This document shows, piece by piece, positions 3,639-55,050 of a stretch of 64,000 nt of DNA (position 1 is its first letter; every line of letters starts with the position of its first letter). The position numbers and the translations under genes are program-made. Source of the DNA: Marsupella aquatica (taxonomy: Eukaryota > Plantae > Marchantiophyta); NCBI GenBank assembly GCA_973895155.1, contig OZ316894.1:1876457-1940456 (forward strand), read 5' to 3'. Below the pieces are notes generated by a model, which ran no database searches, was not told the DNA's origin, and saw nothing but the letters and a program-made list of their open reading frames with translations.

Positions 3639-3699
3639 GAGAAACCTCAAAAGAAGGAAGCCGGGAGAGGTAAAATGATGAGAGTATTGATCAAATAAA

Positions 3700-3710: not shown

Positions 3711-3712
3711 TA

Positions 3713-4719: not shown

Positions 4720-4975
4720 TAGCTCCCCTAGAGTACATTCCTGTTCCCCCGCCTGTCCCACTTGCTGATTTGGTTAGGACATTCAGTGTAGCCCATTTTA
4801 GCTCTTGTTACATTTTCCAATGTAGACACTAGTCCTTCAGTTTTGCACTCATGTACAGTGTTTCACTTTGACATTTTCTCTTGACAAAGTTTACGCTTGC
4901 TTTTGTTTTTTTCTGGTTAGGTGTTTGTCCCCTTTGGTAGAATTTTTATTCCTTCATTGTACTTTGTTTTTCCCT
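4720..4975. repeat. dispersed repeat, with an inverted copy at ~53890-54145
   Basis: cctgtcccacttgctgatttggttaggacatt (~4753-4784) matches the reverse complement of aatgtcctaaccaaatcagcaagtgggacagg (~54092-54123), and the similarity extends on both sides. Confidence 0.7.
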
Positions 4976-5779
4976 AATTTCTAAATGTTGCTAGAAGATT
5001 CAAAACAATAAGGCAAACAATAACACCGTAAACAGAAGAGAGCCCCAAAACTTGATTCCAAACAAACAATAAGACCCCAGAACTTGATTCCAAACACACA
5101 ATAAGACAAACATCCGTAAACATGCTTGTCACCTTAAACAGAAGAGAGCCCCAAAACTTTACCAAACAAACAGTAAGACAACCATCCATAAAACATGCTC
5201 CCCTTAAACAGCAGAGAACCCCAAAACTTTCATGGAATGCGGAGGGGTAAGTTCTAATAGATTAATTTTTATTGTGTTAATATGAAGTCTTAGGGTTTGG
5301 GTTTTTTCATATCTACCCTCCTTCTCTAGTTCCTCTGGAAATGAAGAACTAAATTAAACATATCTTACTAGTCATAATCATCAAGTCATAAGCCCAGAAC
5401 TCCCATGGACCACCAATTGTGGTCTATGGGAGCACTATGTCCGACATAAAGGTCCATCCTGGCTTCACTTTCAACTCTATGGAGAAACAAAATAACATAA
5501 AGCGAAAGCTTGCAATCAATATTGATTTGGCCACCGACATGGTCCCTTGTAGACAAAAGTGGTGTAAAAGTAAATGACAAGCCAAGGTACTTTTTAGACA
5601 AAAGTATATATTACAGGGACCCAGGGAGACAAGGTCACAAAGGCTAAGCATCGCAACAAAAAGAAAGTGGTGATATAAGAGGATATTTTTGGATAGAAGT
5701 GTAAAAGAATAATATCCTGGCATATCTACTTTAGTGCCGTAAGTCCAAATTTCACATGTCCATTGTATTACTTTGATTT

Positions 5780-6625: not shown

Positions 6626-6971
6626 TAAAGAATACTATTCATTAACACGCAAAGTAGTACTAAAATAGTATCCAAGCAGAGTCCACCTGCCTTGTCACGA
6701 CTAAACAAATGGGTTTTGCTAAAATTTTGTCACGAAAACGCAATATTCCTGAAGAAAACCACCGAATCAATCATGAATACAAAAAGGGACTTAGAGGGAC
6801 AAGTGCACTCTGCAGATCAGTGCAGGAAGCTGACGATGACGATGTTGTAAGACTACTTCGATCATGCTCTTTGTCTCGAGAGTATTGTACTTTTGAAGTG
6901 TTCTCCAAGAGACCTGCACACCGTTCCTGATCGAACTGCAATCGGATGTGAGCTTTAGCAATAGGATTTTC

Positions 6972-19632: not shown

Positions 19633-20056
19633 TAATTCCTAAACTTTCTGTAATTTTTATTCAAAGAACATTCAGAATTTTTAGAATTTTTTTATTAAAA
19701 TGAATGCTGGATAGTTTGGTTATAAACTAAAAAAACTTATATAATTTGGTTTTCATCAAACTTTTTCATACCAAAATATTCAAGTTATATTTTTGAGTTA
19801 AGAGCTACTATAAGAGTTGAGTAACAGGAAAGTAACATTTCATGGTAGGTTGGATAAAGCGATTATAAAGAATTAAAAATTTGCCTTATAAAAAGCAAGG
19901 TTGTTGCACTGTGCAGATGAGTTTGATCAGTTTACGGGTTTGATCAATCATGCTCATTGTCTCGAGAGTATTGAAGTTTTTTAGTGTTCTCTAAGAGACC
20001 TCAGACCGTTCCTGATCGACATCCAGTCGGCAGTAAGCTTTAGTAACAGGATTGTC

Positions 20057-22858
20057 ATGGAAAATTTTCAGTTTCATTTCCGTGGGCAGAAGATAGACTT
20101 GCGGGGGGTGTTTCTGTCTTCTGCCATAGCAGTTTCGGTGGTGCTGGTAATCCACTACAAACTGAAAGGCCGACGTAGAAGCCTGGAAAATGATCGTCGA
20201 TTGCCTCCTGGACCCCGTCCATGGCCCATCATCGGGAATCTGGGGCTACTGGGACGTCTTCCTCATCTGGACTTTGCCAAGCTTGCGAAGGAGTATGGAC
20301 CTATCGTTTACTTGCGCCTGGGCACGGTCCCCACTCTCGTCGTCTCTTCCCCCAAAATCGCTGAAGTGATCCTCAAAACAAAGGACCATATCTTTGCCTC
20401 AAGACCAAACTTCGTTCAGGGCGTAATTATGGGGTACAATAGGCACACTATAGGCAGCGCGAGTCACGGACCGTACTGGCGGTACGCGCGTAAGATGATC
20501 ACTGTGGAATTGCTGAACGACAAACGACTCCAACAGTTTCAGGTACATAGCTCTTGGCTACGACATCAGCTTTAATTTCACGTCCATGGTTCACTGGACT
20601 GGCAAATCTGTCACGTTGGGTTTTTATAATTTGAGACCTTCTATTTTCATTTCCTTGCTCTGTGAAATACGTTCGTTCTAGAACTCTGAAGTTTTATTGG
20701 CTGCGGTTCATTTTGACGTCTGTTGTGCTAATGCTAGTCTGTAAAATAAATTATGTGATCTGCCGTCATTCGTTGGAATCGATGACTTTGCTTTGGTCAC
20801 TTCTGGCATAAGAGAAGAGAAGAGAAAAGTTTAGTTATGTACATTCATTTGGCTACATGTCTTTTGGGGGAATAGAAATGGTAATGTACAACAGTGTAGA
20901 GTGCCTACAGCTAACCTGCTAAGTCTCTGTTATTCTGTCCAGAGCCTGCGGAAAAAGCTGGTCATGCGTACTCTACAATCTATACTTGAAGAATGCAAAA
21001 TGGGAAAAGATGTGAATTTACACATAAAATTCGGGCTGATGACAAAGAACAACATCACTCAAATGATGATCAAAGAGAGCTTCTTCGGGCCCAATTCAAG
21101 CGCATCCAATATGAAAGAAGCTGCCGAGTACGATGAAGTCATAAATGATCTCGCCCGGTTGATGGGCGTTTTCGACTACGCAGATTACGTCCCATTGCTT
21201 CAGAATTTTGATCTACAAGGCTACCAAAAGAAAATGCAAAAAGTGCAACGAACGAACGACGTCTTCATTGATAAAGTAATCGACGAGCATCGGCAGGTAG
21301 CTAGTTCCAAGTCCTCTCGGGAGCTCACCAAGAGTGACCGGCAGGATTTTATCGATGTGCTGCTGACTCGTCCCAGCGAAGTCGATGACAAGCCTCTTAC
21401 AGAAGATCAAATCAGGGCCATCTTGCTGGTACAGTGAATCAATCGATTCAAATCACCACTATACTCACCGGTACCTCTATAATTCAGTTGGCGATAACAT
21501 ATTTCGCGCTGAACAATATATATGTCACAATGCTTACTCCATTGTTTGCCTATATTTATCCATCCTTCAAGGTGCTCGCAAACTTTCGTTTCTGTCTAAT
21601 TGTGTGCAAGATTCATATATAGTGTACCTCCTCACCAAAGATAAGTTACTTAACGAATGATCGATTGTAGGCGTGATTATGTAGATGGCAGGGGCAAGCT
21701 TGCATTCATATACGTACGGTAAACTTTACATAACCAACGCAAGCGAGTTAATATATGGCAGTACGTTGAGGCTTTCAGAAACTTACTCCCAATGCAAGAT
21801 CATTACTGCTGCTAATGATCCTGGTCGAAACTCCAGGGAGCTATGCACTTCTTTGCTCTCATCAAAACAAGATCGACTCCATAGGCGGTCGGGTTGAAGT
21901 GGTTCATATATGGCTGAAGCTTCTCATCGGGATAAGCCATGGGTTTATGGTTTAGAGTCGGGTAGAAACTGTCTCATGGCTGGTTGGAGGGCGGAGTATT
22001 TCACCGAGAGGCGTTGAAAGTATTTCATGTCCAGAAGAGGGTGCCCTCAAAGCTTGTGTACAATTATTAAATGAACACAATTTGTGTGGTCTTAAGTCGA
22101 AGGAATTAATGTAGTTCGGGGAAATTAATTAATTATGCAGTCCAGGATTGAGCTGATGCGTTGTTGATGTCCAATCATGCATCTAAAGTTTGCCTGTGGA
22201 AGTGCAGGGCTCCGTCGTGGCAGGGACGGTCACGTCAAATAATACTCTGGAGTGGGCAATGACGGAGCTTTTGAAACACCCGGCGGTTCTGAAAAGAGCC
22301 CGAGAGGAGCTGGATACCGTCGTGGGGTCAAACCGACTTGCGCAGGAGACCGACATTCCCAACCTTAAGTACCTTCGCGCTGTAGTAAAGGAGATCTTTC
22401 GGCTGCACCCCGTCCTTCCAATCCTGCTTCCCCACTATAGCATGGAATCATGTGAGGTAGCCGGGTACCACATACCGGTTAATTGTCAAGTGTTCGTCAA
22501 CGTCTGGGCTATTGGGAGGGACCCTGAAGTTTGGGAACGTCCTTTGGAATTTGATCCGGAGAGGTTCTTGAAGAACAATATGGATACCCTTGGGTTGGAC
22601 TTCGAGCTCCTACCTTTCGGCTCAGGCAGGAGAAGCTGCCCAGGAAGAGGCATCGGCCTCCTCATGGTGGAGTACACACTGGCGGTGCTACTTCACGCTT
22701 GCAACTGGCAACTTCCTCCAGGAGTCAGCCCCAAGGATGTCGACCTTGGAGAGGCGGAGGGATTGACTTGTCCTAAAGCTATTTCTCTTGAAGCGACCGC
22801 ATCTCCGCGCCTGCCCGTTGAGACCATCTATGGTGACAACATTTACCCCTCCTACTAA
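20057..22858 (+). CDS. cytochrome P450, CYP71 clan, copy 2; exons 20057-20542, 20943-21428, 22208-22858 (~540 aa)
   Basis: Same exon structure as copy 1 and a near-identical protein: AGTVTS, KEIFRLHP, DPERF, PFGSGRRSCPG. Confidence 0.95.
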
Positions 22859-28093: not shown

Positions 28094-29039
28094 TCAATCT
28101 TCAGTTTCATTAGTGTTAAGGGCAAGCGGCATATCGACAGTCTCCCATGGTTTAAGTACAACCTGGAGTTGGTCAAGAGCACTACACAATTGTCTTCGTT
28201 TCTTCTCAGAACTGCAGATGTCAATCATTGCCCTGAGATGAGTTTCTGTTTGCCGAAGGACGACCCAACCGGGGAGGCGACCCAAAAACTGAGAGTAAGT
28301 AGCGTCATTCCGTTCTTTCCAAATGCTGGAGCACATCTCCATAATCAATACCATCGGGCCAGGTTTCCTTTTATGCAACTGCACAGCAGTAATGATCGCT
28401 TCGTACAAAGATCCTTGTGAAATCTTCCAATCTCCAGCTCGTTGTAGAACACGTTGGACCTCTCCCCATCTACCAGTAACAGTAGGACAGCTGAAGAACA
28501 TGTGTTCAGTGTGCTCAAAATGAGTTTTACACTTAGCACATAAGCCATCCAAAACTCCCCAGTGACTAGCCCTGCCATTGGAGAAGAATCCATGATTCAA
28601 CAGTCTCCACAGAAAGAATCTCACCTTGGGGAAAGACCAGCCTCCCCAGATTTTCTTCCAGTACTGCTGCCAGTGCTGTGAAGAGCTGACCTGTCCCCAA
28701 CGCCGGTTCAGCTTAGTGACATCAAGCTCCCTGGTTAGGGTGCATTGGCTCCAAGTCCTGGTTGAGAAAGACCAGCCTCTATTCTTCCCCCCAGTCCCAT
28801 TGCCAACCGGCACAATCCTGCAGCTCAACCATGGCAATTTCCGAAAAACATTGTAGCTTGCTATAGAAAATGCTGAAAGCTTCGTTACCAATCCTCCTAG
28901 TGCTCCGGGTCCGACAACAGATCTCATCCTCCGGGATCCACCTGCCAAGCTGAGACCTGAGATCAAGCAGAGTCCTAATTCTACGATTAGCCAGAAACCT
29001 CCTCAAGTCCGTGCCCTATTGTGTCGTGGTTTGGGTGTT
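28094..29039 (-). pseudogene. LINE ORF2, 3' part (zf-RVT domain)
   Basis: WKKIW..PKVRFFLWR..CAKC..EHMFFSC..IWKERN. It rejoins the 5' part in frame once the inserted transposon is removed. Confidence 0.88.
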
Positions 29040-29360
29040 AACAAGAAGCCTTAAGGGATGAGTCCAAAGCCTTATTTCTCTTTTCAAAATCTTCATGATA
29101 TTAAAAAGTGTATACCAAAAAACCACCAAAAAATGGTATGTATTTTCCAAACTAGACTCAAGAGAATTTTACCACCAAAATCTAAGCATATCTTATATGA
29201 TATTCTCACAATTGTATAAACCTTGAAATATGCACTTTATAAAAGTAATCAAAATCAAACTCATCGATCAGAGTTTAAGTCAAACTCAAAGTTTTACAAA
29301 ATATAACCCAACTTAAGCCCAAGTGGTTTCAAATGCTACGAGTCCCTCTATTTATCTAGT

Positions 29361-32300
29361 CTAATCCAAAGGGACCGCTTCCCCTTCCTCGGTTCCAGAA
29401 GTCCCTGTCGTCAATTCTGGAACAATTGTGGCATCGTCAACCACGCTATCCTCTCCGGCCTGAGGAATGTCTTCCTCACTCTCCTCATCCATCTCCCCCT
29501 GTCCGTCTTCCTCTTCAATGTTATCTGCAAGGTTAAGAATCCTCCCTTTCAACACACTGCTCTGTCGCTCGTCAATCTCAATGGCAACGCAATGTCTCCC
29601 CATGGCCAAGGAGGAGGTTGTCCCAGTCCCTGATCCTGAACAAATATCCAAAACCCAGTCTCCAACCTGACTAAAATGACTCACTTCCCAATCTAACAAT
29701 GCACGTGGTTTCTGATAAACATTCACTGCCTTGTTATCCCCGTTGTGTTTCAGCTTCTTAGTCACAGCTGCGCATACAACCACATTGTTCCTTGATTCAT
29801 TTGTGTCAAAATTGAAGTGCTCCAATGACCGTTTACCATCCTGGCTGTGAAAGCCAATTGTAAAGCACTCAAAGTTGCTGTTCAATCTTGGTCCACCAGC
29901 ATTCTTCACATTATCCTTAACCCTGAAAAGTCACAAAAAGTCAAGGAGTTATTTAAACTGAGAAACATGGTTCATGAAATCATGAATAACTAATAGTTGT
30001 TTTTTTCAAAAACAAATATTTCTTACCACACACAATTCTGGAACCCTCCATTACACTCCGCTTTCAAAACGGTCTTGATGGCCTCATATTGGTCAAGGTT
30101 GTGGTGAATGATAATACGCCACAACTTTGCAGTAGTAGCCACCTTGAACGATTGGACCATTTTTGTGATCTCCTCAGTTCCCCATCCAATAGTGTCTTCA
30201 TGAAGACATCCAGGCAATGCAAACCCGTAGGGAATATCCACTAAAGCTAATGTGTAAGCCCGACCCGGAACCACCTCATGTAATCGCTGAGCATCATGAG
30301 TAAAAATATCATAGTGCACATCACCAAACTCTGGATGCTCAAACGAATTTGGATGAAGTTCCCCCTCTTGGGTTTGCCGACTAGAAGTCTTCATGGATAG
30401 CCAATTTTGGGCTTGCACAATATGCGCATTGAATTTGTCCGGGAATGACTTGAGATCTTTGCCTTCCTCATCTCCCTTCTTTTTCCGGGAGGTGGTATCT
30501 TTCTACAAAAAGGAACTATAGAATTAGAAACAAGGATTCCAAATATTAAATGAATTCAAACAATCATTCGAAGAAAGGTGACAGAATCTTACCCATGTCT
30601 GGAAAACAGGTACGAAATTCTTAAGCACATTGTCTGTGCAATGCTCAGGGTACTTGGTTTTACAACCTGACCAACTCTCCTCGTGTAGACACGTGAGGAA
30701 GGCCTTCTGCACCTGCATCTGAAATTTGTGTCGAGTAAATTCGTGACCCATTTCCTGTAAAGAGAGTTCTTTAGTAAGAACTCTCTGTAACACTGGGCAA
30801 ATCATATCAGGATCTTTCAAGGCCTGCATGTGTCTCCACTCTGTTAATTTCATGTCCTCATAAGGCAATTTGGCATCTCCAGACTTAGAGACTTTCTTCT
30901 TGCCTTTGTCTCCTTTTTGACCTTTGATCTCACACATCTCCCACTTGTCACAAATCTGCCTCACAAATGACCACACAGGATCTTGTCGGAATGCCAACTG
31001 AAATAGGTTATCATTGGCATTAAGAACCTCAGCATCCTTTCGTACACCCCAATCCTTGAGATTGATTTCAGTAGCACACTCTTTCTTGAAATCCTGGTTG
31101 GACGACAATCCATTCTCAACAAATCTCATGTGAATATAATTTACTCTCTGGATTGTCGTCATCTGTTGTCGAAATTCAGAATCAATATTGTGACTCCACG
31201 CCAGGTTTCTTGCCTCTTGCACACTCAATCCCGCAAATATCCAAGATTGCACTCTCCGAAATGCCTTGTTGTTAGGGAACTCAAGAGCAAGGTCTGCTTT
31301 GGCACAGGCTGAATGGTTGCCCCCAATCACATAATAATGGTAATCAGCTTTCCTTGAAAAATCAAAGTCTTGCCTAGTAGCACACTCCTTCGGATCCACC
31401 AAGAGGACAAACGGAGCTGCAAGTGGACTGGCACCTACAGTCTTCATCCGCAAGGTCAATTGGGTCAAGAAATATGGTTGGATGTGTCGGACCTGGTAAA
31501 TGGGCAAGCCCATAGCCTTCTCTCTCACTGGAGGGTAAAGTTGACCAATGTCAACGGTCACGGTCTCCTCTTGAACACCACATCTTCCCAGAATCTCCTC
31601 CTGGTACAATACCCGTGCATCCATTGACATTGATTGAGCCTTTTGCTCCAAATGCGTTGGAATTTTCTCCAAAGTCTTCTTTTTTGACTTTGTAGCACTG
31701 GGCTCGGTAGGCTCAGGAGTCATAGCAGGTCGCTTCTTTGAAGAAATGCGAGTTCCAGTCGTACCTTGTGCCGACCCACCAGTCAAAGCCGTTCCCTGGG
31801 ATGATCTGCCAACTTGAGATCCCCCTCCAGATGCTGCTGCTTCCCGGGAGGTTGTAGGCGCTACCACGGTCAAAATATCATTGGGTAAAATGCTAGGCCT
31901 CGATCCAGAAGGAACACCGGAAGCCCCAGATTTGGGTGGACGACTTACTCCCTTCTCTGCCGACCTTTTCCGGAGAATCTCTCTTGATTTTCGGATTGCA
32001 CTCTTTAAAGTGCTAGCGTGAAATTCAAACACAAAACCGGAAATCTTTCCCGCGACGTCGTGGTAACGTTCCTCACTCGAAAGAGACTTGACAGTCTCAA
32101 TGATGCTATCGATGTCCTCATCGAGATAGCAGGTGGCAGCCGTTCCAGAAAACCTCTCCACATCCACGACAATCAAAGTTGATGTTTCCTTCGTTGTGAT
32201 CAACATGTTCACAACTTCGTCGCCCCGTCGAAATACATCGATGCGGCCGTAATTTACCCACCCTAATGCCCCCGATGGAAGCCCCTCAAATACACACAGC

Positions 32301-32422
32301 ATTAGGAAGGGCTTCTTCCATGTTTCCGTCCCTAAGGAAATCGTCCAGGATGAGTTGTGGAAGTCCGTCAAAGGATGGCGCGAAAAGATGTCATCCACCA
32401 GCTCTTCCTGCGACATTGTCAT
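29361..32422 (-). CDS. ParB/Srx-like domain + beta-class amino DNA methyltransferase (N6_N4_Mtase-like); exons 32422-30593, 30502-30027, 29922-29361 (~955 aa)
   Basis: GT-AG introns 30592-30503 (phase 0) and 30026-29923 (phase 2) join three ORFs into one open frame of 2868 nt. ParB-like motifs: YQVR, YVIGGNHS, EARNLAWSHN. MTase motifs in beta order: IV LALVDIPYG, WVK, YQKP, I VLDICSGSGT, GRHCVAIEID. Confidence 0.85.
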
Positions 32423-33201
32423 GTTTTTGCCTGATCTTCAAACCTGAGAACATACCACAAAATCAGTCCACTTCAACCCCAACCTGCGAGACAAAGTGCC
32501 ACAGAACCAAGGAATGTGCCAACAAATGGCTACTAAAACCGTGTCCTTACGGATCTAACAACGCTCTCGGCCACCCCAGGACTCCTATCATGAATTCATG
32601 AAGGGAGTCTCCCTCTCGCTCCGACCTTCATGAATTCATGAAGGGAGTCTCCTCTCTCTTTGCTTGTACACCTCGGTGATGCAGAAGGGTATTTAAAATA
32701 GGGTTCGGAGGGGGGTGACGTGAAGAAATCACCCAGGGCCTAAATTACTACCTAAAACAGGGTCGAAATGAAGTGCGACCGCGACAACTCGCGACACGTC
32801 GCCGATGAGTGCTGAAAATGGCACGAAATTGGACAGCGAGATTGTTTTTCACTCTTTTACAAAGGAAATCCAAATGACATTGAGTGAAAATGAATGGGCT
32901 GCCCCGTGTTCCTTGGTTATACATACTAATCACGGATCAGGCGCGACTTAGTAAAATTAACCCAGAATCATGATAAATCAATGTTTTTGGGCCAATTATT
33001 CATGAATATTTCGGGGTATTAACGGGAAAAAGCTTGCAAATTTCATGAATATTTGATATTTTTGAAGTTAAAAAGTCCCAACAATCCGTGAAAAACTATA
33101 AATAGGCTCATTTATTCATGACTCTTGGTCATTATTTTGAGAAGATTTGTTAGATTTTACTGATTTTCTGAGTTTCTTGTCAATTTGCACTAGTTTTTCC
33201 A
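32423..33201. promoter_or_regulatory. divergent intergenic/promoter region of the transposon with palindromic repeats
   Basis: Lies between head-to-head ATGs (32422 minus, 33202 plus). It contains a TATAAATA at 33097-33104 and a 25-bp direct repeat tcatgaattcatgaagggagtctcc at 32588 and 32628. Confidence 0.55.
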
Positions 33202-35438
33202 ATGGCGGCGTGTTACGAATCAGATGATTATTCAGATGGAGTTTCTGATGATGTTTCATTGCCGGATGGCCCCTGCACAGTGGTTGGCCCAGATATCCCT
33301 GGAATAACTACTGTTTTAGATATGCCACCCCCCACCCCTATGAGCAAGTTAAAACGTAGTCCTTTACGACTTGCAATTAGTGGGAAGAAATCATTGGTCG
33401 GTGGTAAAGAGAGGTCAGGGAGCTCCTCTGACTCCTTGGAGAGTATTGGTCCCCCTGGACGTCAAGTTGTATCTCCTTTGTCACCAACAAAGGACAAATT
33501 GGGGAGTAATCTGGAAGGTTCAATGCCTATTTGGATGTCTGGGAAACGGTCTCATGAATTCATGAAGACTGGATTTGGAAAGACGAAGAAGGCACTAAGT
33601 GGGGAAAATGACAGAGATTTTTGCAGTCTCCAAAGTGTTCAGCGGCTGAAGCAAATGCCAAAAAGTAAAACCTTTGGTAAGCCAACGTCGGAAACATTTC
33701 ACAGGGGGATGAGGGAAGAAACTAGACGACCAGTGTTATTGAACAATCCAAAGAACGTGAGAAACTCGCGAAGCATCGTAAGAAATGTTTTTCAAATTCT
33801 GATAAATATTTGGGAGTTGTCATTGATGGGATGGATCAGAAGAAGACAAGGTTGCCTCATTGGCCGCGGCCCCCAAAATCGGTGGACGAAACATGTTTGA
33901 TCCAAATGCACGTTGTCGGATGCCTGGTTTTCAATGGTGCATTATTTTCAAGAGTGTTTCTTAATTATCCTGTATTGCATAATGATGGAAACTTGACAGT
34001 CACAATCCTGCAAAGGGTGTTTCACAAATGGGAAGAAAAGCCTGGTGGCTTGCCGCCTGTTCTCTATCTTCAACTTGATAATACCAGTAGAGAAAATAAA
34101 AATAATTTACTCTTTGCCTATCTTCATATGTTGATTCGAAGAAAGGTTTTTCGGAAAATCAAACTAGGATTCTTGTTGGTTGGACACACACACGACCAAA
34201 TAGATCAAATGTTCAGTCGATTTTCTAAACGACTAGCAAGGTTTAAGGCATTCACATACGAAAGCCTATGTGATATTATTTGTGAATCATATCAACCCCA
34301 ACCAAATATCACTCTTTTAAAGGAAACATATGATTTCCGTCAATATGCCTTCTCAGATCCACCTTTAGTCATTGAAAGGATTCGAAATGTTACCTTCCAC
34401 CACCAGTACAAATTTGCATTTGACAAGTTGGAAAATCAAGTTCCAACCCAATGGGGGAAGAAGTTTTCCACGGACTCAACTTGGAAACCTGACGGAGGCG
34501 TGAAATTTTTGAGGGAAGAGGAGCCAGAAAAGGTGATGGGTTGTGCTCCCGGATTACCCCTTTTCAAAAAGGGGGATAAGAACGTTACAAGGACTCAACC
34601 AAATATGTCTAGTTCTTCAAGAATGACTTTGAAGGAGATGGATGATTCGTTAAATGAGATTCAAAAGGGAATACTTGCAGTTGAAACTTTATTCTCAGAA
34701 GAGGAAGTGAACTGGTGGAGAATGTTTTTTGAAGAGCAACGGGAATTGAATAAATCTTTGCTCCTTGATCAAAGACCATTGATTTTCCCTTTTCAATGGC
34801 CACGCTCCCAAAGGGAGATTGCTGTTGCTGCTGAAGTTCCCAGAGTCCTTGTCAATGAAGAGGAAATTGAAGAGAGAGTATACGGACCTACCAGAGATAT
34901 ATACGTGGGTCCTTATCGGAATCAAGGAAAGATAGATGCAGAGAAGGAGAATATGGAAGGAGACTTTTCGGATCTTGAAGTCAACACTTATATTTCTGTT
35001 GCTGGAGAAGAATCGGAAACATTTTGGGTGGCCAAGGTGGAAAGAATTGACCAGCGCGACGAGTTCAACATTCCAAAAATGATTTATGTTTTATGGCATG
35101 CTACAAAAACCGGGTCAGATCCTTGGAAAGCCAAGTACTTACCAGAAGTCTTAAACTACGAAAAGAAGAAAAGTGGTCGTGGGAAAGGAACTTTGAAACC
35201 AATATGGTTTCACCAAGAGCTTGATTTATCTTCAACGACTGTTTTTGCTTACAACTTCATGTTGACAAAATCTGATACATTGTACAAAAAGACAGTAGAT
35301 CGAATCAAAATCCGATTGACTGAATTTTTGGCAGAAGAGAAAGAGCAAGAACAAGAGAATGGATCAACTAGAACCCCGCTAGGAGATAAATCTAGGGATA
35401 TTTCGTTTCAAGAATTGAGGACTTCTGGATCTGAGTAA
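33202..35438 (+). CDS. Sola-like DDD/RNase H-fold transposase, with the N-terminus out of frame with the catalytic core
   Basis: The core frame is open from ~33726 to 35438 and contains YLGVVIDGMDQ, LYLQLDNTSRENKN and FLLVGHTHDQIDQMFS (three candidate catalytic Asp). The upstream ORF 33202-33900 is in another frame. It lies inside the TIRs. The superfamily assignment is by motif resemblance. Confidence 0.75.
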
Positions 35439-35997
35439 TGAAAAGTAGTTATTGTTTGTGACATTACCATTGAAAAACATGGATAACTTGAAAATTTACA
35501 AATTTTCAAAATGCCTTTACCACTTATTCATGAATTCATGGTTAAAGTTTCTTGAGAAATTTGTAGTTTAATATTATCTTAGTGGGTTGTGTTTCAATTC
35601 AATTAGATGGTGTCATTTCTATTCTCCTTGTCTTCTTTTCACAATAATGTGTATCAGGTTAAGTTGTAGTAATTTATTTTCTGGTTTTTAAATGACAATG
35701 GCTTTTGGAGGTGATTTAGTTGTTGTTTCAAAAGACACCTCGTGTAATTGTGAGACCATTGTAGATAATAGTGTTGTATTTGAGATCATTTATTGGTGGA
35801 ATGTAACTTCAGATGAATTTGGTCATTTTTAGGTGTCAAAACATAGCTAGTTTATGTCATATTTTGTTCGCTCCATATTTTTGCTCTAAAATAGGTGCTA
35901 ATTTTTGCACTTTTTTTGACTTTTCGTTGTTTTTCTGATTTTTTGGCTAGAGTTCCTAAAGTATGGGCTTGTTACTCATCATTTAAGGCTTCTTGTT

Positions 35998-38924
35998 TGT
36001 TGCGCAGGTACAGTAGCACAACTTGTTCAATGGAGAGATGGGATGGAAGCTTCCCTTGTCCAAAGTTGAAAAGAAGGTGGCTACTCGCATTGTTCCAACC
36101 CTTAAGCAGACCCCGCAGTGTAGGGGAGCCCTGGATCTTCAGCTCATCACCCTGCAGCAAGGCTTCAGTAACAGTCCACCTTCTGCGCTCCTTCTTGCCC
36201 TGTCCAGAGTTGCAGCACTTCTTAATGATCTCCTGTGCCATCTTCACCCATTCCCTGTCCGCCCCAATGATGAGTTTAGAGATATGCCTCATCTTTAGTG
36301 CTTCGGCCTGTTCTTCAAAGGGCTGAATTCCCAGTCCCCCTTGGCCCTTTGGTGTAAGCAACGACAGATTTTTTCCATCTCCATAAATCCAGTCTTGTAG
36401 AGCGACAATGTCATCAGGTGATAGGTTGGAATTGACCTCAAGACGTGCTTCATCAAAATAGCTCTCCCAACCATAGTCAGACTCCGATAAGTCCAATGGT
36501 TCAGCCGACAACGCAATTTCCCGACCAGGAAGGCAGCGGCATGAGTGGGCGCACCTTATACCCAATAGGGCACCCCAGATACTCAATGACTTCCCCTTCC
36601 TTGGCGATTCTGCATCCAGTGTTCTTCATCCACTCTGGGTAGTGCCCTTGCATAAAGTAGATCGGTATAATCTGAGATTTCTTCACATTCAAAAGAGCTC
36701 CAAAGATGTTCTCATACTGTTGCACTGTCTTCCTAGCTTCCACAAAGTCATTCTCCGTTGCTACCAAGAAGAGGCCTGTGTCATCCGCGAACAGTTGATA
36801 GCAAATGTTGTTGTTGTTGGCAACTTTCAATCCTTGTATATGCCTTGCCTCCAGTTGCTTCTTAAAGAGTGCCATCAGTGGTTGAGTCGACAGAGCAAAG
36901 AGAAGTGGGGACAAGGGGCAGCCTTGCCTCACCCCCCTCTCCAACTGAATGGGTTCTGTGAACCTCCCATTAACGTGAACTTTGGATTGAGTATTAACCA
37001 CTAGCCCCTGCACAAGCAGAATAACATGCTCATCAAAATTCATCGCCCTCAGCACCGCCCACAGGAAGGAATGAGCCACCCGATCGTAGGCTTTGGTGAA
37101 ATCCAATTTGAGGAACACAAGTGGCTGCTTGCTGAGTGGCGCATGCTCCTGGGCCATCTTGAAGGTCAACAGGTTATCCAAAATGTCACGGCCTTCCAAA
37201 AAGCCCGTCTGTTGTGGATCCACCAACTTACTTGCCACCCCCTTGAGACGATTGGCCAGCAGCTTTGCAATCAATTTCTCAGTCAGGGTAAGCATGGTAA
37301 GAGGTCTCCAATTGCTCAGCTCCTACGTGTCTCCATTCTTAGGAATCAACTTAATGACACCGGCGGAGGCCCTAGTAGTAAGCTTTCCATCCTTCCAATA
37401 TGCATGGATCATAGTGACACAGGCTGGCTTCATGAAATCCCATCCCTTAATCAACATTTCTACTGTCATACCATCCAGCCCAGGGGATTTCTCCTTGGGC
37501 AGGGTGAAGACCATCTTTTCAATTTCCTCCTCACTAGGTAGTCGCCCAATTTTCTGGTTGTCAGCTTGTGTAGCCTTAGTAGAGATCAGCCCCAACGCCT
37601 CCCCTAGAGCATCCTGATGCGTCAGAACGTGTGTGTCTGCGGTGTACAATTTTGAGTAAAATTTATGTATTTCCCCAAGGATAATGGTCTCATCTTCGGT
37701 AATTTCCCCATTCCCTCTCTTCAGCTGCTTGATGCTCTCCTTAGCATGCTTCGCTTTGAGCTGGTTGAAAAAGTACTTGGTAGGAGCTTCCCCTAGAGTT
37801 AGCCATCTCACCCGACTTTTCTGTCGCAACTTGATGGCATCCGCTTTAGCCTGTTCCCTAGTTCTATCCTCAATCCTATCCTCAATCCTGCCAAGCTCGT
37901 CCAACTGGTACTTAGAAGGATTTGCCCCCAGCTCAGTTCTGAGCTTGTTCAGCTCATCCCCTAGGTGCCCAGTGTTCCTTTTTGCCGCTCTCTTTCGCTT
38001 CTCCCCCTGGAGTAGCTGTTTAGTGGCCCCCCAACAGAGGTCCCAATTCACCCTGGGATCCCGGTTCTCCACCCAGTTTTCCTTCCATACCCGTTCAAGT
38101 TCCTGTTTCATCTCAGGAGACTCAACTAATTTTGCATCCATTTTGAAATAAGTGGCCTTCCTATGTGCATTCAAGGACAACTTTTGTCGTAACACAAAGG
38201 TGGTCACCACTGGGACATGGTCGGAGATGGTCTCCCTACCGTCATGCATACAAGATTTCACATACTCACACCATTGATTTCTATTACTGCTGTAGTTGCG
38301 ATCCAGACATGACTGGTCGTAGCGGTCAGACTTCCTAGCTTGCCTGGTGTAGTATGGACCAGTACGAGTGCCTGCACAGAGATAATTGTCCACCAAATCT
38401 AGGTGGTCCACTAATCTGTTCTAGGCTCTAGCCTCTGAGCCATGGATGAAGGCCGATGGGCCCACTGCATCATCGAATAAATCGGTCATGTTCCAATCTC
38501 CCCCAAAAATCCAATTCGACTCCTTCAGGTTGTTGCGTAGCCACTTCCAGAGAGAGGTCCTTAGACGTCTCTCGTTCGGGGCGTAAATAGAACCCACACT
38601 GATCTCTCCCACGCAAGTCTTAATAGTTGCCCACACAAAGGATCCGTCCCCTTTACACCCGTGTTCCACAATCTGGTATTGCTTGGGGATCAACAGAGCA
38701 GCTCCAACCTTTCCTTCCCCCTTCTGATCTACTAATTTAGTCCCTTCATGGTCGATGAGACCCAGTTGAAAAATAGCCCGCTGCCTCTTAACCTTAAGTT
38801 CCTGGAAACAACAGATAGCCAAACCAAGCGTGTTGTTGTGAATCCATCTGTTGATCTGTTTAACCTTCAAAGGGTCTCCTAGCCCCCTCACATTCCATTG
38901 GCAAATGGTCAATTCGTCATTCAT
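35998..38924 (-). pseudogene. LINE ORF2, 5' part (APE endonuclease + reverse transcriptase)
   Basis: WNVRGLG, FQELK, IYAPN, GGDWN, SDHVPV, KSPGLDG, LDFTKAYDRV, GVRQGCPLSP, LFADD, YLGCP. It contains stops and frameshifts. Confidence 0.92.
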
Positions 38925-40810
38925 CTAAGACCATTGTTATTTTGGCCCACTGTCTGTCTGCCTAGGCCGGTCCCCCTCTCTCCCGAAGTTGATTTGATCT
39001 CCGTCCCGTGGACTCCCTTCTCATCCACTCCTTTCCTAGGTCCCCGGTCCAAATTGTTGTTGGTGTTAAGCTTGGATTGTTCATAAGTGAGCATCCTCGG
39101 TCCAGTGCCGTCGGGTCTTTCTGTGACATGGTACGGAATTTCTTCCGGGAGAATTTCAGCCATTCTTTTATCACTGGCGAAGGTTGGGACAGCCCCAGTA
39201 TGGGTACTCTTCCTGGTTTTTTTGGGTTGTTGTCGTGCTAGTGTGCCAGTCTTTGTTGGGGATGATTCCTTGCCTGATCCCCCAACATTCGGTGGGGATT
39301 GTGCTGCTTTCCTAGAGTTCTTCACTACCTAAGTATCCATAGGTTCTGCTCCCTCAGTTTCCGAAAAGCTGACCACAAAACCCGGGGGTATCAGGTCCAT
39401 AGTCGCTGAAATATTACTGGGAATAGCAGGTTTCAAGCCTTCTTCACCTGGCTCCATACTGGCTTGCTGCCTGAGGTTGTCGGGTGGGGTTCCTGTGTGG
39501 ATCCTTAAGTTTCCTGCTTCGTTTCCCACTCCTGTCTCCATCATAGCCGGATTGGACGCTGGAGCGATCTCCCCTTCTTCCAGATCATTCAACATAGCCA
39601 GAGCACCAAAAGGGTTCTCACTCTGCCCGAGATTCGTTGCTGTTTCTCCTGCACCCTGCTTCCCTTTGTGTGAAGCCCTGGTTTTCACTATTGTGTACCC
39701 TTCTGTGTTTCTCTACTCCTGCAGGATCCCCTGTTTGTCTGTTGGTGTCGGGGGTGACAATTCTGGCTGCTGTCCTGCTGGGCTCTTTCTCAAGCTGGGC
39801 TTGTTGGGGCAGTATCTTGCAATGTGTCCTCTCTGCTTGCAAGCAAAGCAAGCGTCTGGCAACGTCCTGTATATAACATCCACCCTGTATCTACCAACTC
39901 CTGGTATTGTCAGATCAATATATTCTACTAGATCCTCATTCAGGTTGCAAAGCACACATCCACGTATATGTGAGAATTTGCTTCTAGCCCTAGCAGTCTG
40001 TGCATACAGCACCTTACCAACTCTAGCTAGCATCTGATTAGCATAGTACTCAAAGGCTGGGTTGAGCAAAGGAAGATCTACCCACACGGGTGCTTTAGTG
40101 GATCTCATTGCTTTGGCATCAAAATCAGGTGTCCACGGCATAGCAATGACCATCTTCCTGCCCATGCTAAGATAAGGCTCAAGTAGAATCGAGGTTTGGT
40201 CCTCTGGAGTGGATACCACAATCAGAAAAGTGTACCTAGCCAATACTTTGATTTGTTCAATGGCAATATTCATTCGAAGCCCAATGACCTCGTGGGCCCA
40301 TTCTTCAAAGTAGTCTCTTGATGGGTTGAAATCTACTGTATACATTATGATCCCCCTATTTTGTAAATGCAGGATACGACTCGCTACAATATTCTTTTCT
40401 ACAACCAAAATTTCTGACCTCATTCCTGGTGATGGATGCTCTGGGACCTGCGGCAGATGTGCCAGTTGCTCTCGCAGATCTTCATTGGATACATATATCC
40501 CGGCTTCTTTATCGAGGTTGTTATCGTAAGGGTTATCCTCCTCCTCCTCCTCCACTTGAAAGTCCACCAGGTCATCGTCTTCCGCTGGATCCCACACTGG
40601 GTCTTTGAACCCAAAGCTACCCCCCCTTTGTTGGCTAGTGCCAGCTGCTGCCATCGCGTACGAGCTTGCATTTTCCTCTGCCTGATGCGCCTGCCCTCTA
40701 TATGATATTCCATCCTGGCAATCATGTGTGCGTGGGCTTCCGTTGTTGTCTCTGGCTGTGCCACTAAGGGGAATAATTACCTCCGAGCACATAGTGTCCT
40801 TGCTCAGCAA
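38921..40810 (-). pseudogene. LINE ORF1 (DUF4283-like region + CCHC zinc knuckle), interrupted
   Basis: APVWVDLP and CFACKQRGHIARYC motifs. It continues through 39329-39688 and 38921-39325, and its stop overlaps the ORF2 ATG (ATGA). Confidence 0.85.
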
Positions 40811-42399
40811 TCCTTGGGCCCCATGCTCTAGTTTCTACCTTCAAGTGTACGTATATAATTATGTAAAAAGAAATGTCTTGAACATGATGTAGGATATAGT
40901 AAACACTTAATTAGAATATGCTTAGTTTGAGCCTCTCTCACTAGAGTGTACAGTCATAATTATATTAATATTCATATATCTCATTTTGACCCTTGATTAT
41001 CATTGTAGATATTATGACATTTTAAATTTATGATTTGAGTATTATTGACATCTGATTCTTGGACCAATTTAATTTTAATTTAATTTGTGCATTAGTTACA
41101 ACATATTATTTTATTTAATATTTATTGATTTTATTTTAATATCTATATTTATAAAATTTTAAGGGAAATCTGTGAAACCCCACAGAAAGGAAGAGTCGGC
41201 CACAATAATTGAACCCAACACCTATCAATCTACTCAAGTGAGTTACCACAAAGTCATGCCTCTAACCAGATTCAATTTAATATTAAATATTAAAGATTTG
41301 GGAATCAAAAAGTGTATTTATTTGGGGTGAAAAATATTCATTTGGGGGCTCATTTTAAAGAGTTTTGGGTTGAGAAAAAACAACTTTAGTCTTCATTTCC
41401 TAGACTTTTAAAAGTCAAGTTTTAATGAATACACTCCAGTGATATGTATCTACTCCTTTGGCCAAATTGTTGGTATTGGTAGAGCATCATCCCATGCCAC
41501 CTCCCAACCCTCAAAAGAAAAATGATTTATTTGGCCTCCTCAGAATCTCAACAATAAAAAAATTATTTTATATTATGTGAGGGAATGACTGTGCAGGTTA
41601 CCCTATTTCCTAGGACTCAGTTTGACTTGGTACCCTCCTTTTGGCAAAGGCAAGAGTCTGTCATACTCCATACCCCTATCAGGTAGGGCACTCTCATGCC
41701 TGCACAAGCAATCAAGAAATGAACACTGAGAGTCAAAATCTGGCCAGTGGACATAGTTTATAACTTGGGGCGCAAGATGTAGTAAGGGTTCTTCACATCA
41801 TTTAAGAGATATGCAGTTTTGCAGTCTCATTCATAAATTATCCTCAGTGGGTTATTTGTAGGGTAAGCCATTTCTTAAGGGGTTTAGTTGGGCTGTATTC
41901 CCCTAAGGAGTCACAGGCCATGGCCCCAAAGAGAGGATGGGTTACCCTTGGGGTTACTTCACCTTATGAAGTTGTTGTATGCTTTGTGTAAACACCCCTA
42001 CTAAACCACATCCTCTCAAAGGGATAGGAAGCTAAAAAAAACACATGACAAATGATGTATCCTGTGATGACATATGGCACTCTGAATGATTATCCCTTAC
42101 TTGCTTTATCGTGACTTCTAAGTACTTCCCTAATAGAACAACTCTTAATTCGTTCTCATATGATTGAGTTAATTTATGGAAGTGACCCCAGTGGTTACCT
42201 GAGTGGGATCAGATTGTGGCAGTAACACAGATATTTAAATGAAGGAATCGCGAGTCTGGTAGATGAGAGCCTTGTGCTCCATATTAACCGTTAATGAAAA
42301 TACAAACTAATGTCACAACAAAGGTGTTAGGACAATCATGGGTATATGCAAAAATCAATCAATCTCAAGTTCTAGATGTCATTCCAGAGTCCGTCGACT

Positions 42400-48936: not shown

Positions 48937-49630
48937 TCGGATTTAAGTTTCGCCGTTTTTTCACTTTTTCTGCATGTTTGGCGATTTCGACGATTTCGCG
49001 ACTCAATTTGGGTCGTAACTTTCTCCAGGAGTTCGGATTTGGGAGTTCTTGACGGCTTTGGAAAGATCTTGGCGAGGCGATGAAGATCGATACGACTTGC
49101 ACCCCAAACGGTTACCGTATGAGCGAGTTACATCGGATTTAAGTTTCGCCATTTTTTCACTTTTTCTGCGCGTTTGGCGATTTGGGCGATTTCGCGACTC
49201 AATTTGGGTCATAACTTTCTCCAGGAGTTTCGGATCTGGGAGTTCTTGACGGCTTTGGAAAGCTTTCGGCGAGGCGGTGAAGATTGATACGACTTGCGCC
49301 CCAAACGGTCACCCCATGACCGAGTTACATCGGATTTAGGTTTCGTCTTTTTTCACTTTTTCTGCGCGTTTGACGATTTTGGCGATTTCGCGACTCAATT
49401 TGGGTCTTAAATTTCTCCAGGGGTTTCAGATTTGGGTGTTCTTGACTTTGGAAAGATCTTGGCGATGCGGTGAAGATCGATATGAATTGCGCCCCAAACG
49501 GTCACCAATTGAGCGAGTTACATCAGATTTAGGTTTCGCCGTTTTTTCACATTGGCTGCGCGTTTGGCGATCTTGGCGTCTTCACGACTCAATTTGGGTC
49601 AACGTATGAGCGAGTCACATCGGCCTTAGG
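48937..49630. repeat. ~196-bp tandem repeat (~3.4 units) at the 5' end of the CRE-like element
   Basis: cggattta.gtttcg restarts at 48938, 49134, 49331 and 49524; the units are CpG-rich. Confidence 0.9.
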
Positions 49631-50622: not shown

Positions 50623-53308
50623 GTGGGTCACCGTGAGACTGCCTCTCGTATCCATCGTTTTTTGCAGGGAGATTGGGAGCAGCTTCAGGAAGAGTACTTT
50701 CTTCGCGCCCGGTCTTTTACCGCCCGTACTTTGTCTGACCCAGCCCGCCACTCTCATCCCCCTGAGCATAGACGTCTTCGTCGCTCTTGTCGTTTAGCCC
50801 AGGCTGGTGAATATCGTCGGGCTGTCCAGGCCCTTTCTCCCACCACACCAGCCCCCCCTGGCGAGGTCACCTCATCGGCCCTTCAGGATCTCCATCCGCA
50901 GCCCCATGATCAGCTCCCTTTGTTCGTAGAGGATTTTGAGCCTGAGGAGGATCTTCAGTTTAGTAGGGACCACTTCACCTATGCCTTCCTCCATGCCCTG
51001 CGTTGCGCTGCTGGTGGCCCCTCTGGCTATGTCTTTGAGCATTTTTGGGATTTATTCCCCCCTGAGGATCCTCAGTTTGGTTTTCCAGTTTTCTTCTCCT
51101 TTTGCCAGTGTATTGCAGCCGGTCGTTTGCCTCCTCCCGTCTCTCGGCTCTTGAGTGCTTCTCGTTTATTGGCCATGGCTAAGTCTTCGGCCAATTGCTA
51201 TTGGGGAGGTTTTTCTTCGGCTTGTGTCTCGCACACTTTCCTCGCAGTTTCGCTCTGCACTATCAGATCATCTCTCTCCACATCAGTTTGCAGTTGACGT
51301 TCCTGGCGGTTGTGAGACAGTTATTGCGGGTACTCGAGCTACCTTGGACCTCCACCTTGATTGGGTTGTCCTCCAGGTTGATGTCTCTAACGCTTTTAAT
51401 ACGGTTTCTCGGGCAGCCATTTTTCGTGCTTTGAGGGCGGCGGATCCAGACATCCAGTCCCTGATCCCCTTTGTCCGTTGTTTTTATGGACTCAAGGCCC
51501 CACTCTTCTATAGTCATCACTCCTCTATAGGTGTGTATACCACTCTTTCCTCTGCAGAAGGTACTCGTCAGGGTGACCCTTTGGGTGGGCCTCTTTTTGC
51601 CATTGCCCATTTTAAAGCTTTACGGGAAGCCGCCTTGGCCCACCCCCAGTGTATCTTCCCCTCCCTTTCAGATGACACCCACATCATTGGTCCTCCTGCC
51701 GCGGTTACTTTTGCCCTCGCCACTCTTTCCACCCTTTTGATGGGCCTCGGTTTACGAGTTCAGCCTGTGAAGAGTCGTGCATGGAGTCCAGCTGGGTTAC
51801 CCTCTGATCTTGCGCTTCCCCCAGGGTTCTTACATCCAGCCGATGGTCTTTGGGTCCTTGGCTCCCCAGTCGGTACCGCCTCCTTTTGCTCCTCTTTCAT
51901 CGCTGACTCTCTACAGGCTGCCTTAGCCTCTACTCCTATGCTCCCTAAGTTAGCAGATTCTCAGGCAACATTTGGGATGTTGTTGAGGTGCATCCACCCT
52001 CGTGCGTCTTATTTGGCTAGGACGCATCCCCCTACCGAGGATCTTTGTCTCCACCTTTGAGCATTTGATGTCTCCATTCGTCAGACCCTGGCCTCTCTTT
52101 TGGGGGCCGGGTACGTTGCTCTCATCTCCGTGGCTTCATCGACAACTCAGTCTTCCTATTTTGCAGGGTGGTTTTGGGCTTACTTCCATTGAGAGCCTTG
52201 CACCTTTGGCCTTTTTGGGTGCGTGGGCGGCCACCTTCTCATTGTTGGCCGATTGTTTTCTTATTGAGGATCACCCTTTTTTACTTTCATCTCTCATGGA
52301 GGTAGAGGAGGGTTCCCTTCCGTTTCAGGTTCATTTGCGCGCAGCGCGGTCCTCATTACCAGATCCCATTCGCGCCGCGTTACCTTTTTTTCAGGAGTTT
52401 TTATCCTTGGATCCCGTTTGTCTTCAGGCAACCTCGTTGGGCGTATGCACGCTTTCACCCTTTCCAGCATCCTCTCTGAGGCACCTGACACGGACCAAGC
52501 TCGGATTCTTTCTTCCGGAGGGAAGGGCACAGGTGGATGGCTTCAGGCCAATCCAGTCATTCCTCATTTGCGGATGTCTTCAACGGAGTTCTCCACAGCC
52601 ATGCGTCTTCGTATGGGGCTGCCCCACCCACTTCTTGCAAGTTTACCCCCTTTTTGCACTTGTGGGAAGCCTTGTGATGCCACAGGTGTCCATCTTCTTC
52701 GGTGCAGTTTGGGAGGTGAAACCATTATTGTTCACGACGCTGTGCGAGATGCGACTGCTCAAGTTCTCTCTGGCTCTTTGGTATGCGTGCGGCGGGAGGT
52801 GGTACTCGAGTTACCTGGTCCTCCATCACAGCGGTTACGGGTGGATCTTACCATGGTCCGTGAGGGTCAACGTACATTGGCAGATGTAGTGGTGGCAAAC
52901 CCATTGCGCCAAGACATCATTGGGACAGTAGCAACTACGGCAGGGGCAGCAGTGTCACGTGCGGCAACAACAAAGGAGGCCAAATATGCTGCACGAGCTT
53001 CATCCGACAACTTCCTCCCCCTTGCTCTAGAGCTATTTGGGCGTCTTCATCCTTAGTTTGATGGGCTTCTTTGGCAAGTTGCCCGGGATGTTCATGGCCG
53101 CATGGGTCCCACCGGACCCCCGCTTTCTATTTTGACCACGCACTTTCGCCAACGCATTTCAGTCACCTTGCAGCGTGCTCAAGTTCGGGCCATCTATCAT
53201 CGATCTCTTACAATGGGTGCTAGTGTGCCTCCGCAGCGGCTAGCTCCCCTAGAGGATGTTCTAATCCCACTTGTCGATCTAGTTTTGACCCTTGATGTGG
53301 ACCAGTAG
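50623..53308 (+). pseudogene. RT-RLE polyprotein of the CRE-like element (frameshifted)
   Basis: ORFs 50623-51297, 51155-52060, 52002-52889, 52418-53056 and 53102-53308 tile consecutive domains. Confidence 0.82.
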
Positions 53309-54904
53309 CTTTTTGCCACATTCGCTAGGAATGATGAGGGCCTCGGTCCCCTTGGATTAGTTTTAGTCTCTCTTTCTTGGTTTTTAGGGGTTCCCTATTG
53401 CTCATTTCTTACTTTTAGTTCCTCTTTCTTGGTGTTTAGTGGTTCCCTTTTGCTCACTTCTTTTTCGATTGGTTTTGTCCACTTGGGCCCTCTTTTGTTT
53501 GTTCATTTGTACTCTGATTGGTCCCTTTGTATATAAAAAGTGTGTATATTTGTCAAATATGTGTAAAGAAGAATGAAATAGTATGTCCTAGCTTGAGGCA
53601 GAGATGGGCTTCCACCCACATCTAGACTCATACACTAACATTCAGAAAAAGGTTATTGGGAATTGCGTGTGAGTTGACAGGAAAATTTAAGTAGACCCCA
53701 CATGACATTTGGACACGTGATTGCCCCATTCACCTAGTAAAATAAAGACACAGAACAATACAAATTAAGTTGTGAGTTCAAAAGGGACTATTTATAGGAA
53801 AGTGAAAAGTATTTAAGTCTATTGGGAGTAGATCAAGAAATTTTATTTTTTTCTATTCTCTCTATTACTAGAAAAACTCACCAAAATGTATAATTCAGGG
53901 AAAAACAAACTACAATGAAAGGAAAGAAAAAGAGTTCCAAAGTGGACAAACACCTAACCAGAAAAAACAAAAGCAAGTGTAAATCTTAAAAAAATGATTA
54001 AAAAGAGAAAACTGTCAAACAGTACATGACTGCACACTCAATGTCCGGCATCTACATTGGAATATGTGATAAAAGCTAATGGGTCACATCCAATGTCCTA
54101 ACCAAATCAGCAAGTGGGACAGGAATGTTCTCTAGGGGGGCTAGTGTCTGCGGGGCACACTAACGCCCACTATGAGGGATCGACAATAAATGGCTCAAGC
54201 TTGGGCATGTTGTAAGGTCACTGAAATGTGCTGATGAAAGTGTGTGATCAAGATGGATAGTGGGGGTCTGGATGGACCCATCCGTCCATGAATATCACAA
54301 GCAGCCTATCGAAGGAGCCCATCGAACTGATGATGAAGATGCCCAAAGAGCGGGAACTCAACTAGGGAACCATAGTTTTGCATGGGGATCATTGAGAGCT
54401 TCAAAATGAATCCAAACATGACCATGTTTGGAAGAGTACGAGCGCAAAAACATCTATTTTAAGTTTCAATATTTTCTATACTTTGGTCATTCTTCCCGTT
54501 TTGCTCCTTATGTGGAGCCTCCAGCCAGCCCCCACCCATCCAAGATGCCCACACCTGGGCCTCCAAGTCCTTGGGCTGCCTTTTGGCCTCCATGTACCCC
54601 CTCAATGGCTCCATTGTCATCCATCACCACCCAACACCCCTCTCAACTTTGGCCTTCGATTGTCGCATCAATTTATTAAAACTAAAAAAAATAAAAATTT
54701 GAAAATCCAAACACTTTTGCTACACCTATTTGTCTTTCTACTTATATACACAATTTTAAGTCATCACTAAGTTACTATTGGGCTTGGGGCCCTGTCACTA
54801 GATGCTAGAAAGGGTGAAAGTGTGCATATGCTCAACAAGGTCAGCCTGAAGATAAAAACTCATGAAAAGAAGGTAACGCGCCTTGTACAAGTTCCGGTAA
54901 TGAG

Positions 54905-55050
54905 GACCGGGCATCTAAGCCGGGTATTAAATATCAAATATATTTAATATCTAAGCCGGATATTTAATAAACATGTTTTGCTTAGAACGGTGTTATAATA
55001 TTATTCACGGATTTGATATTTAATACCTGGTTATTTAATATCTAAGCAAC
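54905..55050. repeat. small foldback/inverted repeat
   Basis: ccgggtattaaatatcaaat (54919-54938) pairs with atttgatatttaatacctgg (55011-55030); tatttaatatctaagc is repeated internally. Confidence 0.65.

Follow-up and report, generated by a model that had tools for sequence, protein, structure and literature searches.

The question raised by this locus is why a plant transposon should carry a DNA-modifying enzyme of its own, and which DNA that enzyme might act on. The locus lies in a window of 64 kb (the whole stretch of DNA analysed) from the liverwort Marsupella aquatica, contig OZ316894.1, and is a DNA transposon of 6,958 bp (29040-35997) with terminal inverted repeats (TIRs) and a target-site duplication (TSD). 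It holds a transposase gene and, on the opposite strand, a gene for a predicted fusion of a ParB-like protein with a DNA methyltransferase (MTase). Our answer, held with moderate confidence, is that the element is a Sola1-like transposon whose predicted ParB-fold/beta-class amino-MTase likely binds short palindromes within the element and likely marks the copies of its own family with N6-methyladenine (6mA).

The limits of the element were defined by the following features.

29036-29039, unstranded: left TSD, TGTT; repeat found on both sides, empty site available
29040-29071, plus strand: left TIR (the AAC... end), from comparison of the arms
35966-35997, minus strand: right TIR, from comparison of the arms
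35998-36001, unstranded: right TSD, TGTT; repeat found on both sides
28094-40834, minus strand: long interspersed element (LINE) interrupted by the transposon, with zf-RVT on the left and RVT_1 and an ORF1 with DUF4283/zf-CCHC on the right

A sequence-only reading of this DNA had proposed precise ends with 31-bp imperfect TIRs and a TGTT TSD. The arms were measured as 32 nt and are 84% complementary, the outermost 15 nt matching perfectly, and the TSD of 4 bp (TGTT, at one insertion site) was confirmed. The empty site was present in public sequencing runs, in two contigs of run X2 and two of run X4, with a joint from 29035 to 35998 at which four letters fit either flank. The interrupted LINE has stops of its own. 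The element is a genuine TIR cut-and-paste DNA transposon. In run X1, the four longest contigs on the element had a depth of 484-621, compared with 13-21 for related LINE and variant contigs, and differed from the element by one gap and by four of about 3,260 letters; contig depth is not equal to copy number and was taken solely as a sign of many copies. We read the family as young and multi-copy.

The cargo gene was resolved into three exons on the minus strand.

30593-32422, minus strand: exon 1 (610 amino acids, aa), with a weakly PH-like N-domain (aa 20-140), a disordered linker (aa 158-265), a ParB/Srx core (aa 280-412) and a helical KorB/Noc-like part to about aa 570
31585-31187, minus strand: ParB/Srx core of exon 1 (aa 280-412), from the predicted fold
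30503-30592, minus strand: intron 1 (90 nt, GT..AG), position common to 3/3 related loci
30027-30502, minus strand: exon 2, with catalytic motif IV (DIPY) at 30238-30227
29923-30026, minus strand: intron 2 (104 nt, GT..AG), position common to 3/3 related loci
29361-29922, minus strand: exon 3, with the S-adenosylmethionine (SAM)-binding motif I at 29648-29625, an acidic tail and the stop

Joining the exons (32422-30593, 30502-30027 and 29922-29361) gave a protein of 955 aa with no internal stop, in agreement with the spliced three-exon gene of about 955 aa that had been proposed; we infer that its start codon is at 32422 or 32416. The splicing rests on conservation across loci: both GT..AG introns were found at identical positions in all three related metagenome loci (L001-L003), and 11 of 12 exon-1 relatives ended directly after the same Trp. 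In 6/6 comparisons, covering three loci and both halves of the protein, the proportion of nonsynonymous differences (pN) was 0.22-0.25, against 0.72-0.87 for synonymous differences (pS). The MTase half was 66-68% identical to the three loci and the ParB half 64-70%. By these sequence comparisons the cargo gene is under purifying selection. Among the variants listed for near copies, 11/16 were synonymous in the ParB and MTase parts versus 7/14 in the linker, a difference that is only a hint.

The C-terminal half was assigned by sequence profile, motif order and fold. PF01555 matched exon 3 with an E-value of 1.6e-8 and 35.3 bits (cut-off 26.7), and motif IV (aa 699) stands ahead of motif I (aa 861), which is the beta-class order. 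The structure model of a relative from the liverwort Calypogeia (67% identical; predicted local distance difference test score, pLDDT, 87.8) had CcrM as its best structural match in Foldseek (E 1e-13). The C-terminus is thus a predicted beta-class amino-MTase, as the earlier reading had it. A family profile search placed N6-adenine (N6A) enzymes (E 3e-16 to 2e-14) above N4-cytosine (N4C) enzymes (7e-8 and 1e-5). Motif IV could be aligned in 65 of 150 relatives, where Asp came first in 60/65, DPPY occurred in 3/65 and SPPY in 0/65, and in 30 aligned relatives the motif IV Asp, its second Pro and the Gly of the SAM loop were each at least 90% conserved. If the enzyme is active, these sequence data make 6mA, rather than N4-methylcytosine (4mC), its quite probable product.

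For exon 1, a structure model with a mean pLDDT of 73.6 showed a beta-rich N-domain, a disordered linker and a ParB-like part. The N-domain gave weak PH-like matches (Z up to 4.7). In Foldseek the eight best rows were all Noc/ParB chains, six of them with E<=0.001. In the VIA comparison the model matched PadC with a Z of 9.5 (root-mean-square deviation, rmsd, 2.8; 94 residues aligned) and, in the second row, KorB with a Z of 7.8 (rmsd 14.1; 191 aligned). Exon 1 is therefore predicted by its model to hold a ParB/Srx N-domain and, behind it, a helical DNA-binding domain. As a separate observation, Atlas features put the ParB half (30593-31600) near fungal DUF3723 clusters (0.96); this domain, which turns up in many Starship papers, may perhaps be ParB-like as well.

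A candidate target for such a protein was found in the element itself, in the form of the palindrome TCATG-N4-CATGA.

32588-32641, unstranded: two palindromes with centres 173 and 213 bp upstream of the MTase start codon and thus 40 bp from each other; candidate operator
29972-29985, unstranded: palindrome in intron 2, present in intron 2 of 4/4 elements
33552-33565, unstranded: palindrome in the 5' coding part of the transposase, also in L001
35528-35541, unstranded: one-mismatch palindrome on the 3' side of the transposase, from a motif scan

The exact palindrome occurred at four sites in the 64-kb window, all of them within the element; 0.12 were expected, and four were reached in none of 100 shuffles. 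Because it was first noticed in local alignments of the related loci, all spaced palindromes with 5-mer arms were screened without bias; TCATG-N4-CATGA ranked first (4/4 elements, 12 sites), while 20 shuffled sets reached at most three sites. L001 has four sites, L002 three and L003 one. The placement was also kept: the upstream pair (40-42 bp apart) in 3/3 loci with the region, the intron 2 site in 4/4 and the site in the transposase 5' part in 2/2. The DNA surrounding the upstream pair barely aligns between loci, yet the palindromes are retained. The arms reach 16 bp in L002, and the central 4 nt are variable. This layout, two half-sites around a variable centre, is what one would expect if a dimer recognised the half-sites. 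TCATG-N4-CATGA is likely a binding site of the ParB-MTase protein, and the self-marking idea so gains a candidate site.

Several other sequence signals were examined. Two TTCATGAATATTT stretches at 33000 and 33043, 43 bp apart and upstream of the transposase, resemble a degenerate palindrome pair. TCATGA stands at 16 places in the element, compared with 23 in the remaining 57 kb of the window. The observed/expected ratio (O/E) of CATG in the element was 1.02, neither enriched nor depleted. CpG O/E was 0.60 in the element, 0.58 in the rest of the window and 0.39-0.46 in the LINE; a footprint of methylation protection is not claimed, the ratio of the element being equal to that of the rest of the window. 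A scan for sigma-70 promoters gave matches at chance level only. A palindrome scan of viral contigs returned 120 loci, none with two sites and none encoding a relative, and these were set aside as chance matches.

The transposase gene faces the cargo gene across the upstream region.

33202-33743, plus strand: transposase 5' part, starting MAACY; same start and head-to-head layout in L001
33743/33744, plus strand: deletion junction; Cys-rich middle absent, frame shifted; loose ends in runs X1-X4 and X6
33744-35438, plus strand: transposase 3' part with the DUF7869 core; likely triad Asp at 33825, 34077 and 34203

The transposase belongs to PF25273/DUF7869 (E 2.4e-51), and in 120 transposase relatives the three Asp were conserved in 93-99% of aligned rows. 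Full-length relatives (860-930 aa) align solely from about 33741 onward, and the window copy is without their Cys-rich middle. Contigs of X1-X4 continue with different sequence after 33743, those of X6 differ before 33742, and the 5' and 3' parts of the gene lie in different frames. The DDD transposase that had been read opposite the cargo gene is Sola-like and head-to-head, but in the window copy the gene is broken by an internal deletion and a frameshift, and this copy is not autonomous. The motif after the second Asp, D-N-x4-N-K-N, agreed by eye at 5/9 positions with the Sola1 consensus and at 3/9 with that of Sola2, in the parts of the hidden Markov model file of PMC5751038 that were compared. 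Sola1 is described as preferring AWWT targets as its hallmark (PMC3845634). Because the TSD, TGTT/AACA, departs from AWWT, we term the element Sola1-like and not canonical Sola1. Separately, runs X1 and X2 have loose ends at 33743 and 34854, and X1 has little cover over bins 33820-34863 and no contig spanning 33743-34854; these signs point to a second version of the element, internally deleted but with the MTase gene retained, which is only a lead.

The range of the cargo was followed in a representative protein search with 410 matches at E<=0.001, of which the 29 closest or longest were looked up. Eleven of the 29 carry an organism name, and all eleven are streptophytes: Chara (5), Calypogeia (2), Riccia (2), Adiantum (1) and Ginkgo (1). 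The nearest named relative is from Calypogeia fissa (67%); an unrooted tree of 40 proteins retained from 150, without prokaryotes, shows only that Calypogeia is nearest. Each of the two looked-up MTases of Riccia sorocarpa has a DUF7869 gene no more than two locus tags away (R1sor_010796/010795 and 020633/020635), on chromosome entries of the same length, an adjacency with a chance of about 0.6% each (40 listed DUF7869 genes in about 26,500 tags, by our arithmetic). In L001 the transposase start is head-to-head with the cargo gene. These sequence data support the ParB-MTase as stably carried cargo of a plant transposon family. The claim of the sequence-only reading that such a family brings its own predicted amino-MTase thus held, with cargo in Chara, two liverworts, a fern and Ginkgo, and the cargo is no one-off, since relatives in several lineages keep it. 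As further observations, Chara CBR_g41648 (P0183) is predicted as a protein of 1,825 aa in which the ParB-MTase unit stands twice in tandem, and the Logan contigs that hold exon-1 relative P0004 and transposase relative P0065 both measure 8,829 nt and may be a single, complete related element.

We propose the following mechanism. The protein would dimerise on the palindromes, by analogy with ParB, Noc and KorB on parS, Noc-binding sites and operators. Such binding would confine methylation to copies of the family, transposase-dead ones included, and the predicted mark on these copies would be 6mA. Dead copies such as that in the window would be moved in trans. As to purpose, we tentatively favour, by analogy with VANC, that the mark would keep the shared divergent promoter usable against host silencing by 5-methylcytosine (5mC); self-repression through the operator-like pair ranks next and is doubtful. 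Also rather doubtful is the full version, in which a Sola1-like clade from charophytes to gymnosperms has a ParB-MTase that loads on palindromes, spreads, writes 6mA on family copies only and shields them from 5mC silencing.

A number of points weigh against the proposal. Apart from the window element, the palindrome was checked in three loci whose proteins are about 65-70% identical, and the palindromes could serve the transposase or a host factor instead. The ParB part of L001 is interrupted by one stop, and the first 160 codons of L002 hold stops under the framing used. The ParB part had no match in Pfam, PHROGs, NCBIfam or PDB sequence-profile searches of exon 1, so that of the earlier ParB call the Noc/ParB fold stands by the model, while ParBc was not detected by Pfam. 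The arginine patch GERRxR is described as required for CTP-driven spreading of ParB (PMC7053999); at its likely place, judged from model secondary structure, GGNHSA was found in the window protein and in all 12 close relatives, and some distant relatives carry one Arg there. Because GERRxR seems replaced, a CTP clamp is no more than possible; CTP-dependent sliding may occur, but the motif lends it no support. Motif IV of the window protein is DIPY instead of DPPY, and MTase activity is therefore not assured. The N4C structures PvuII and N4CMT also matched the Calypogeia model closely in Foldseek (E 4e-10 to 6e-10), and the PF01555-type domain is described as having repeatedly switched between 6mA and 4mC (PMC8885841). 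In Riccia, the adjacency covers 2 of the 40 listed DUF7869 genes.

The alternative that survives best, although we think it unlikely, is that the palindromes are bound mainly for repression or scaffolding in the manner of KorB, with an MTase that is weak or tunes binding, so that transposition is limited and not promoted. The operator-like pair upstream of the gene's own ATG in 3/3 loci with the region, the non-canonical DIPY and the second VIA row, KorB being a repressor, would suit this. However, the MTase half is conserved like the ParB half, its motif IV Asp and second Pro and SAM-loop Gly are kept among relatives, and intron 2 and the transposase reading frame contain sites as well.

Less likely still, the transposase or a host factor binds the palindromes, or these act as hairpins, and the ParB-MTase methylates broadly or elsewhere. 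The upstream pair folds as a single-strand hairpin (z -6.8), and a half-site lies 54 bp from the left end. But the hairpin score carries little weight, because the two palindromes pair with each other by construction; the central 4 nt, which vary, need not pair, as fits a dimer reading two half-sites. No full site lies in the TIRs; the distance to the left end is 930 bp or more, that to the right end 460 bp.

The same targeting with 4mC as the mark, which would tie the element to the 4mC enzymes of Marchantia and bdelloid rotifers as had been suggested, we regard as improbable. The PvuII and N4CMT matches and the changeable specificity of the domain speak for it, whereas the profile search favours N6A enzymes. 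The Marchantia and bdelloid enzymes have (T)SPPY, which is absent from the 65 aligned relatives with their prevailing Asp-first motif, and MpDN4MT1, compared by its published description, has TSPPY and no extra domains.

That a host or bacterial gene was captured just once, or that the DNA is a prokaryotic contaminant, is hardly credible: both domains are prokaryotic in type and phage MTases match (at <30% identity in the rows shown), but the gene has two conserved spliceosomal introns, sits in a LINE insertion with an empty site, has relatives in many lineages and is under selection, and scans that reach close relatives only found no exon-1 relative in viral contigs (0/91 candidate stretches), prokaryote genomes (0/20) or phages, for which reason no donor is named.

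If the preferred reading, site-directed self-marking by the ParB-MTase, is right, plants have an enzyme on a transposon that writes a DNA mark other than 5mC, a matter of relevance to the survival of transposons under silencing. The full version, with spreading and shielding, would make the system a programmable module for self-marking and the first site-directed 6mA source to be defined in land-plant DNA. The origin of 6mA signals in plant DNA is contested, and a transposon-borne writer would bear on that question.

The window holds further features outside the element. Segments at about 6900-9330 and 20000-22450, 13.1 kb apart, are duplicates 91-97% alike with a cytochrome P450 exon in each. 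A broken Copia-type gag-pol lies at 1041-3779. A long nested inverted repeat at 52344-54912 (arms of 198, 83, 62 and 41 nt), pieces of which are repeated at 4716-4990, is likely a foldback element or one like a miniature inverted-repeat transposable element. A 196-bp tandem array of 3.4 copies (48937-49601) lies just ahead of a second LINE-like reverse transcriptase at 51155-52060.

The sequence-only reading was aware of no description of this architecture in land plants; novelty of the architecture as such was not borne out. Literature searches found no land-plant report, a weak blank as they also missed PMC12477816, and the available parts of PMC12344493, PMC12973397, PMC4455052, 10.1101/2021.09.26.461848 and 10.64898/2026.08.24.746577 contain no land-plant description. 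The counterpart is Sola1-1_Ec32 of the brown alga Ectocarpus (PMC12477816), likened here by its described architecture and not by cargo protein sequence. It likewise has a Sola-1 transposase, an opposite-strand ParB-like/N4C-N6A MTase gene (its protein 1104 aa), AAC...GTT termini and a TSD of 4 bp; the best match of its transposase bears the name Sola1-1_PPa_tp, and the authors propose that the own element is bound and modified. Unlike that element of 21.5 kb with a 282-bp TIR, the present one is from a plant, has 7 kb and a 32-nt TIR, and encodes 955 aa. The terms 'palindrom' and 'binding site' do not occur in the available text on Sola1-1_Ec32, which names no binding site, whereas conserved dispersed palindromes are found here. 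The red-algal Plavaka PAG2/PAG3 elements (10.1101/2025.02.11.637652) are also DNA transposons with PF01555 and ParB accessory domains, in a cassette that moves between transposon families and with arrays of inverted repeats, next to the ParB gene, that have been proposed as the sites of ParB. They differ in an EnSpm-type transposase, a size of 17-19 kb, tandem arrays in place of single dispersed sites, and two genes (MTase fused to SET, ParB fused to a 2OG oxygenase) in place of one fusion. ParB-HTH-fused MTases of another structural group are described in chlorophytes and chytrids (Iyer 2015, PMC4738411).

Other systems share single traits. As in bacterial ParB, Noc and KorB (PMC7053999) and in the beta-class N6A MTases CcrM, RsrI and MboIIA, both halves have, by prediction, the same folds and the candidate sites are palindromic, but here the arginine patch is apparently absent, the protein is fused, spliced and eukaryotic, and identity is 13-22%. 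MpDN4MT1 (10.1101/2021.02.12.428880) and bdelloid N4CMT (PMC8885841) are also eukaryotic PF01555 beta-class enzymes of bacterial type; they are described as host genes that make 4mC, without a ParB part and not on a transposon. VANDAL elements of Arabidopsis with VANC (PMC5735166) share a transposon-encoded accessory protein, family-specific short targets in the element and a proposed self-only logic, although VANC removes 5mC and its targets are tandem repeats, whereas a writer is predicted here; no homology is expected. In the two 2025 algal papers (PMC12477816; 10.1101/2025.02.11.637652), ParB/methylase accessory genes were put forward as the means by which a transposon binds and modifies itself. 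The present element offers a compact 7-kb version with a 14-bp, position-conserved candidate site across four diverged families, and this site, with named relatives in liverworts, a fern, Ginkgo and Chara, makes their proposal testable. The architecture is already published for algae; the candidate target site and, as far as our searches show, the land-plant member are new here.

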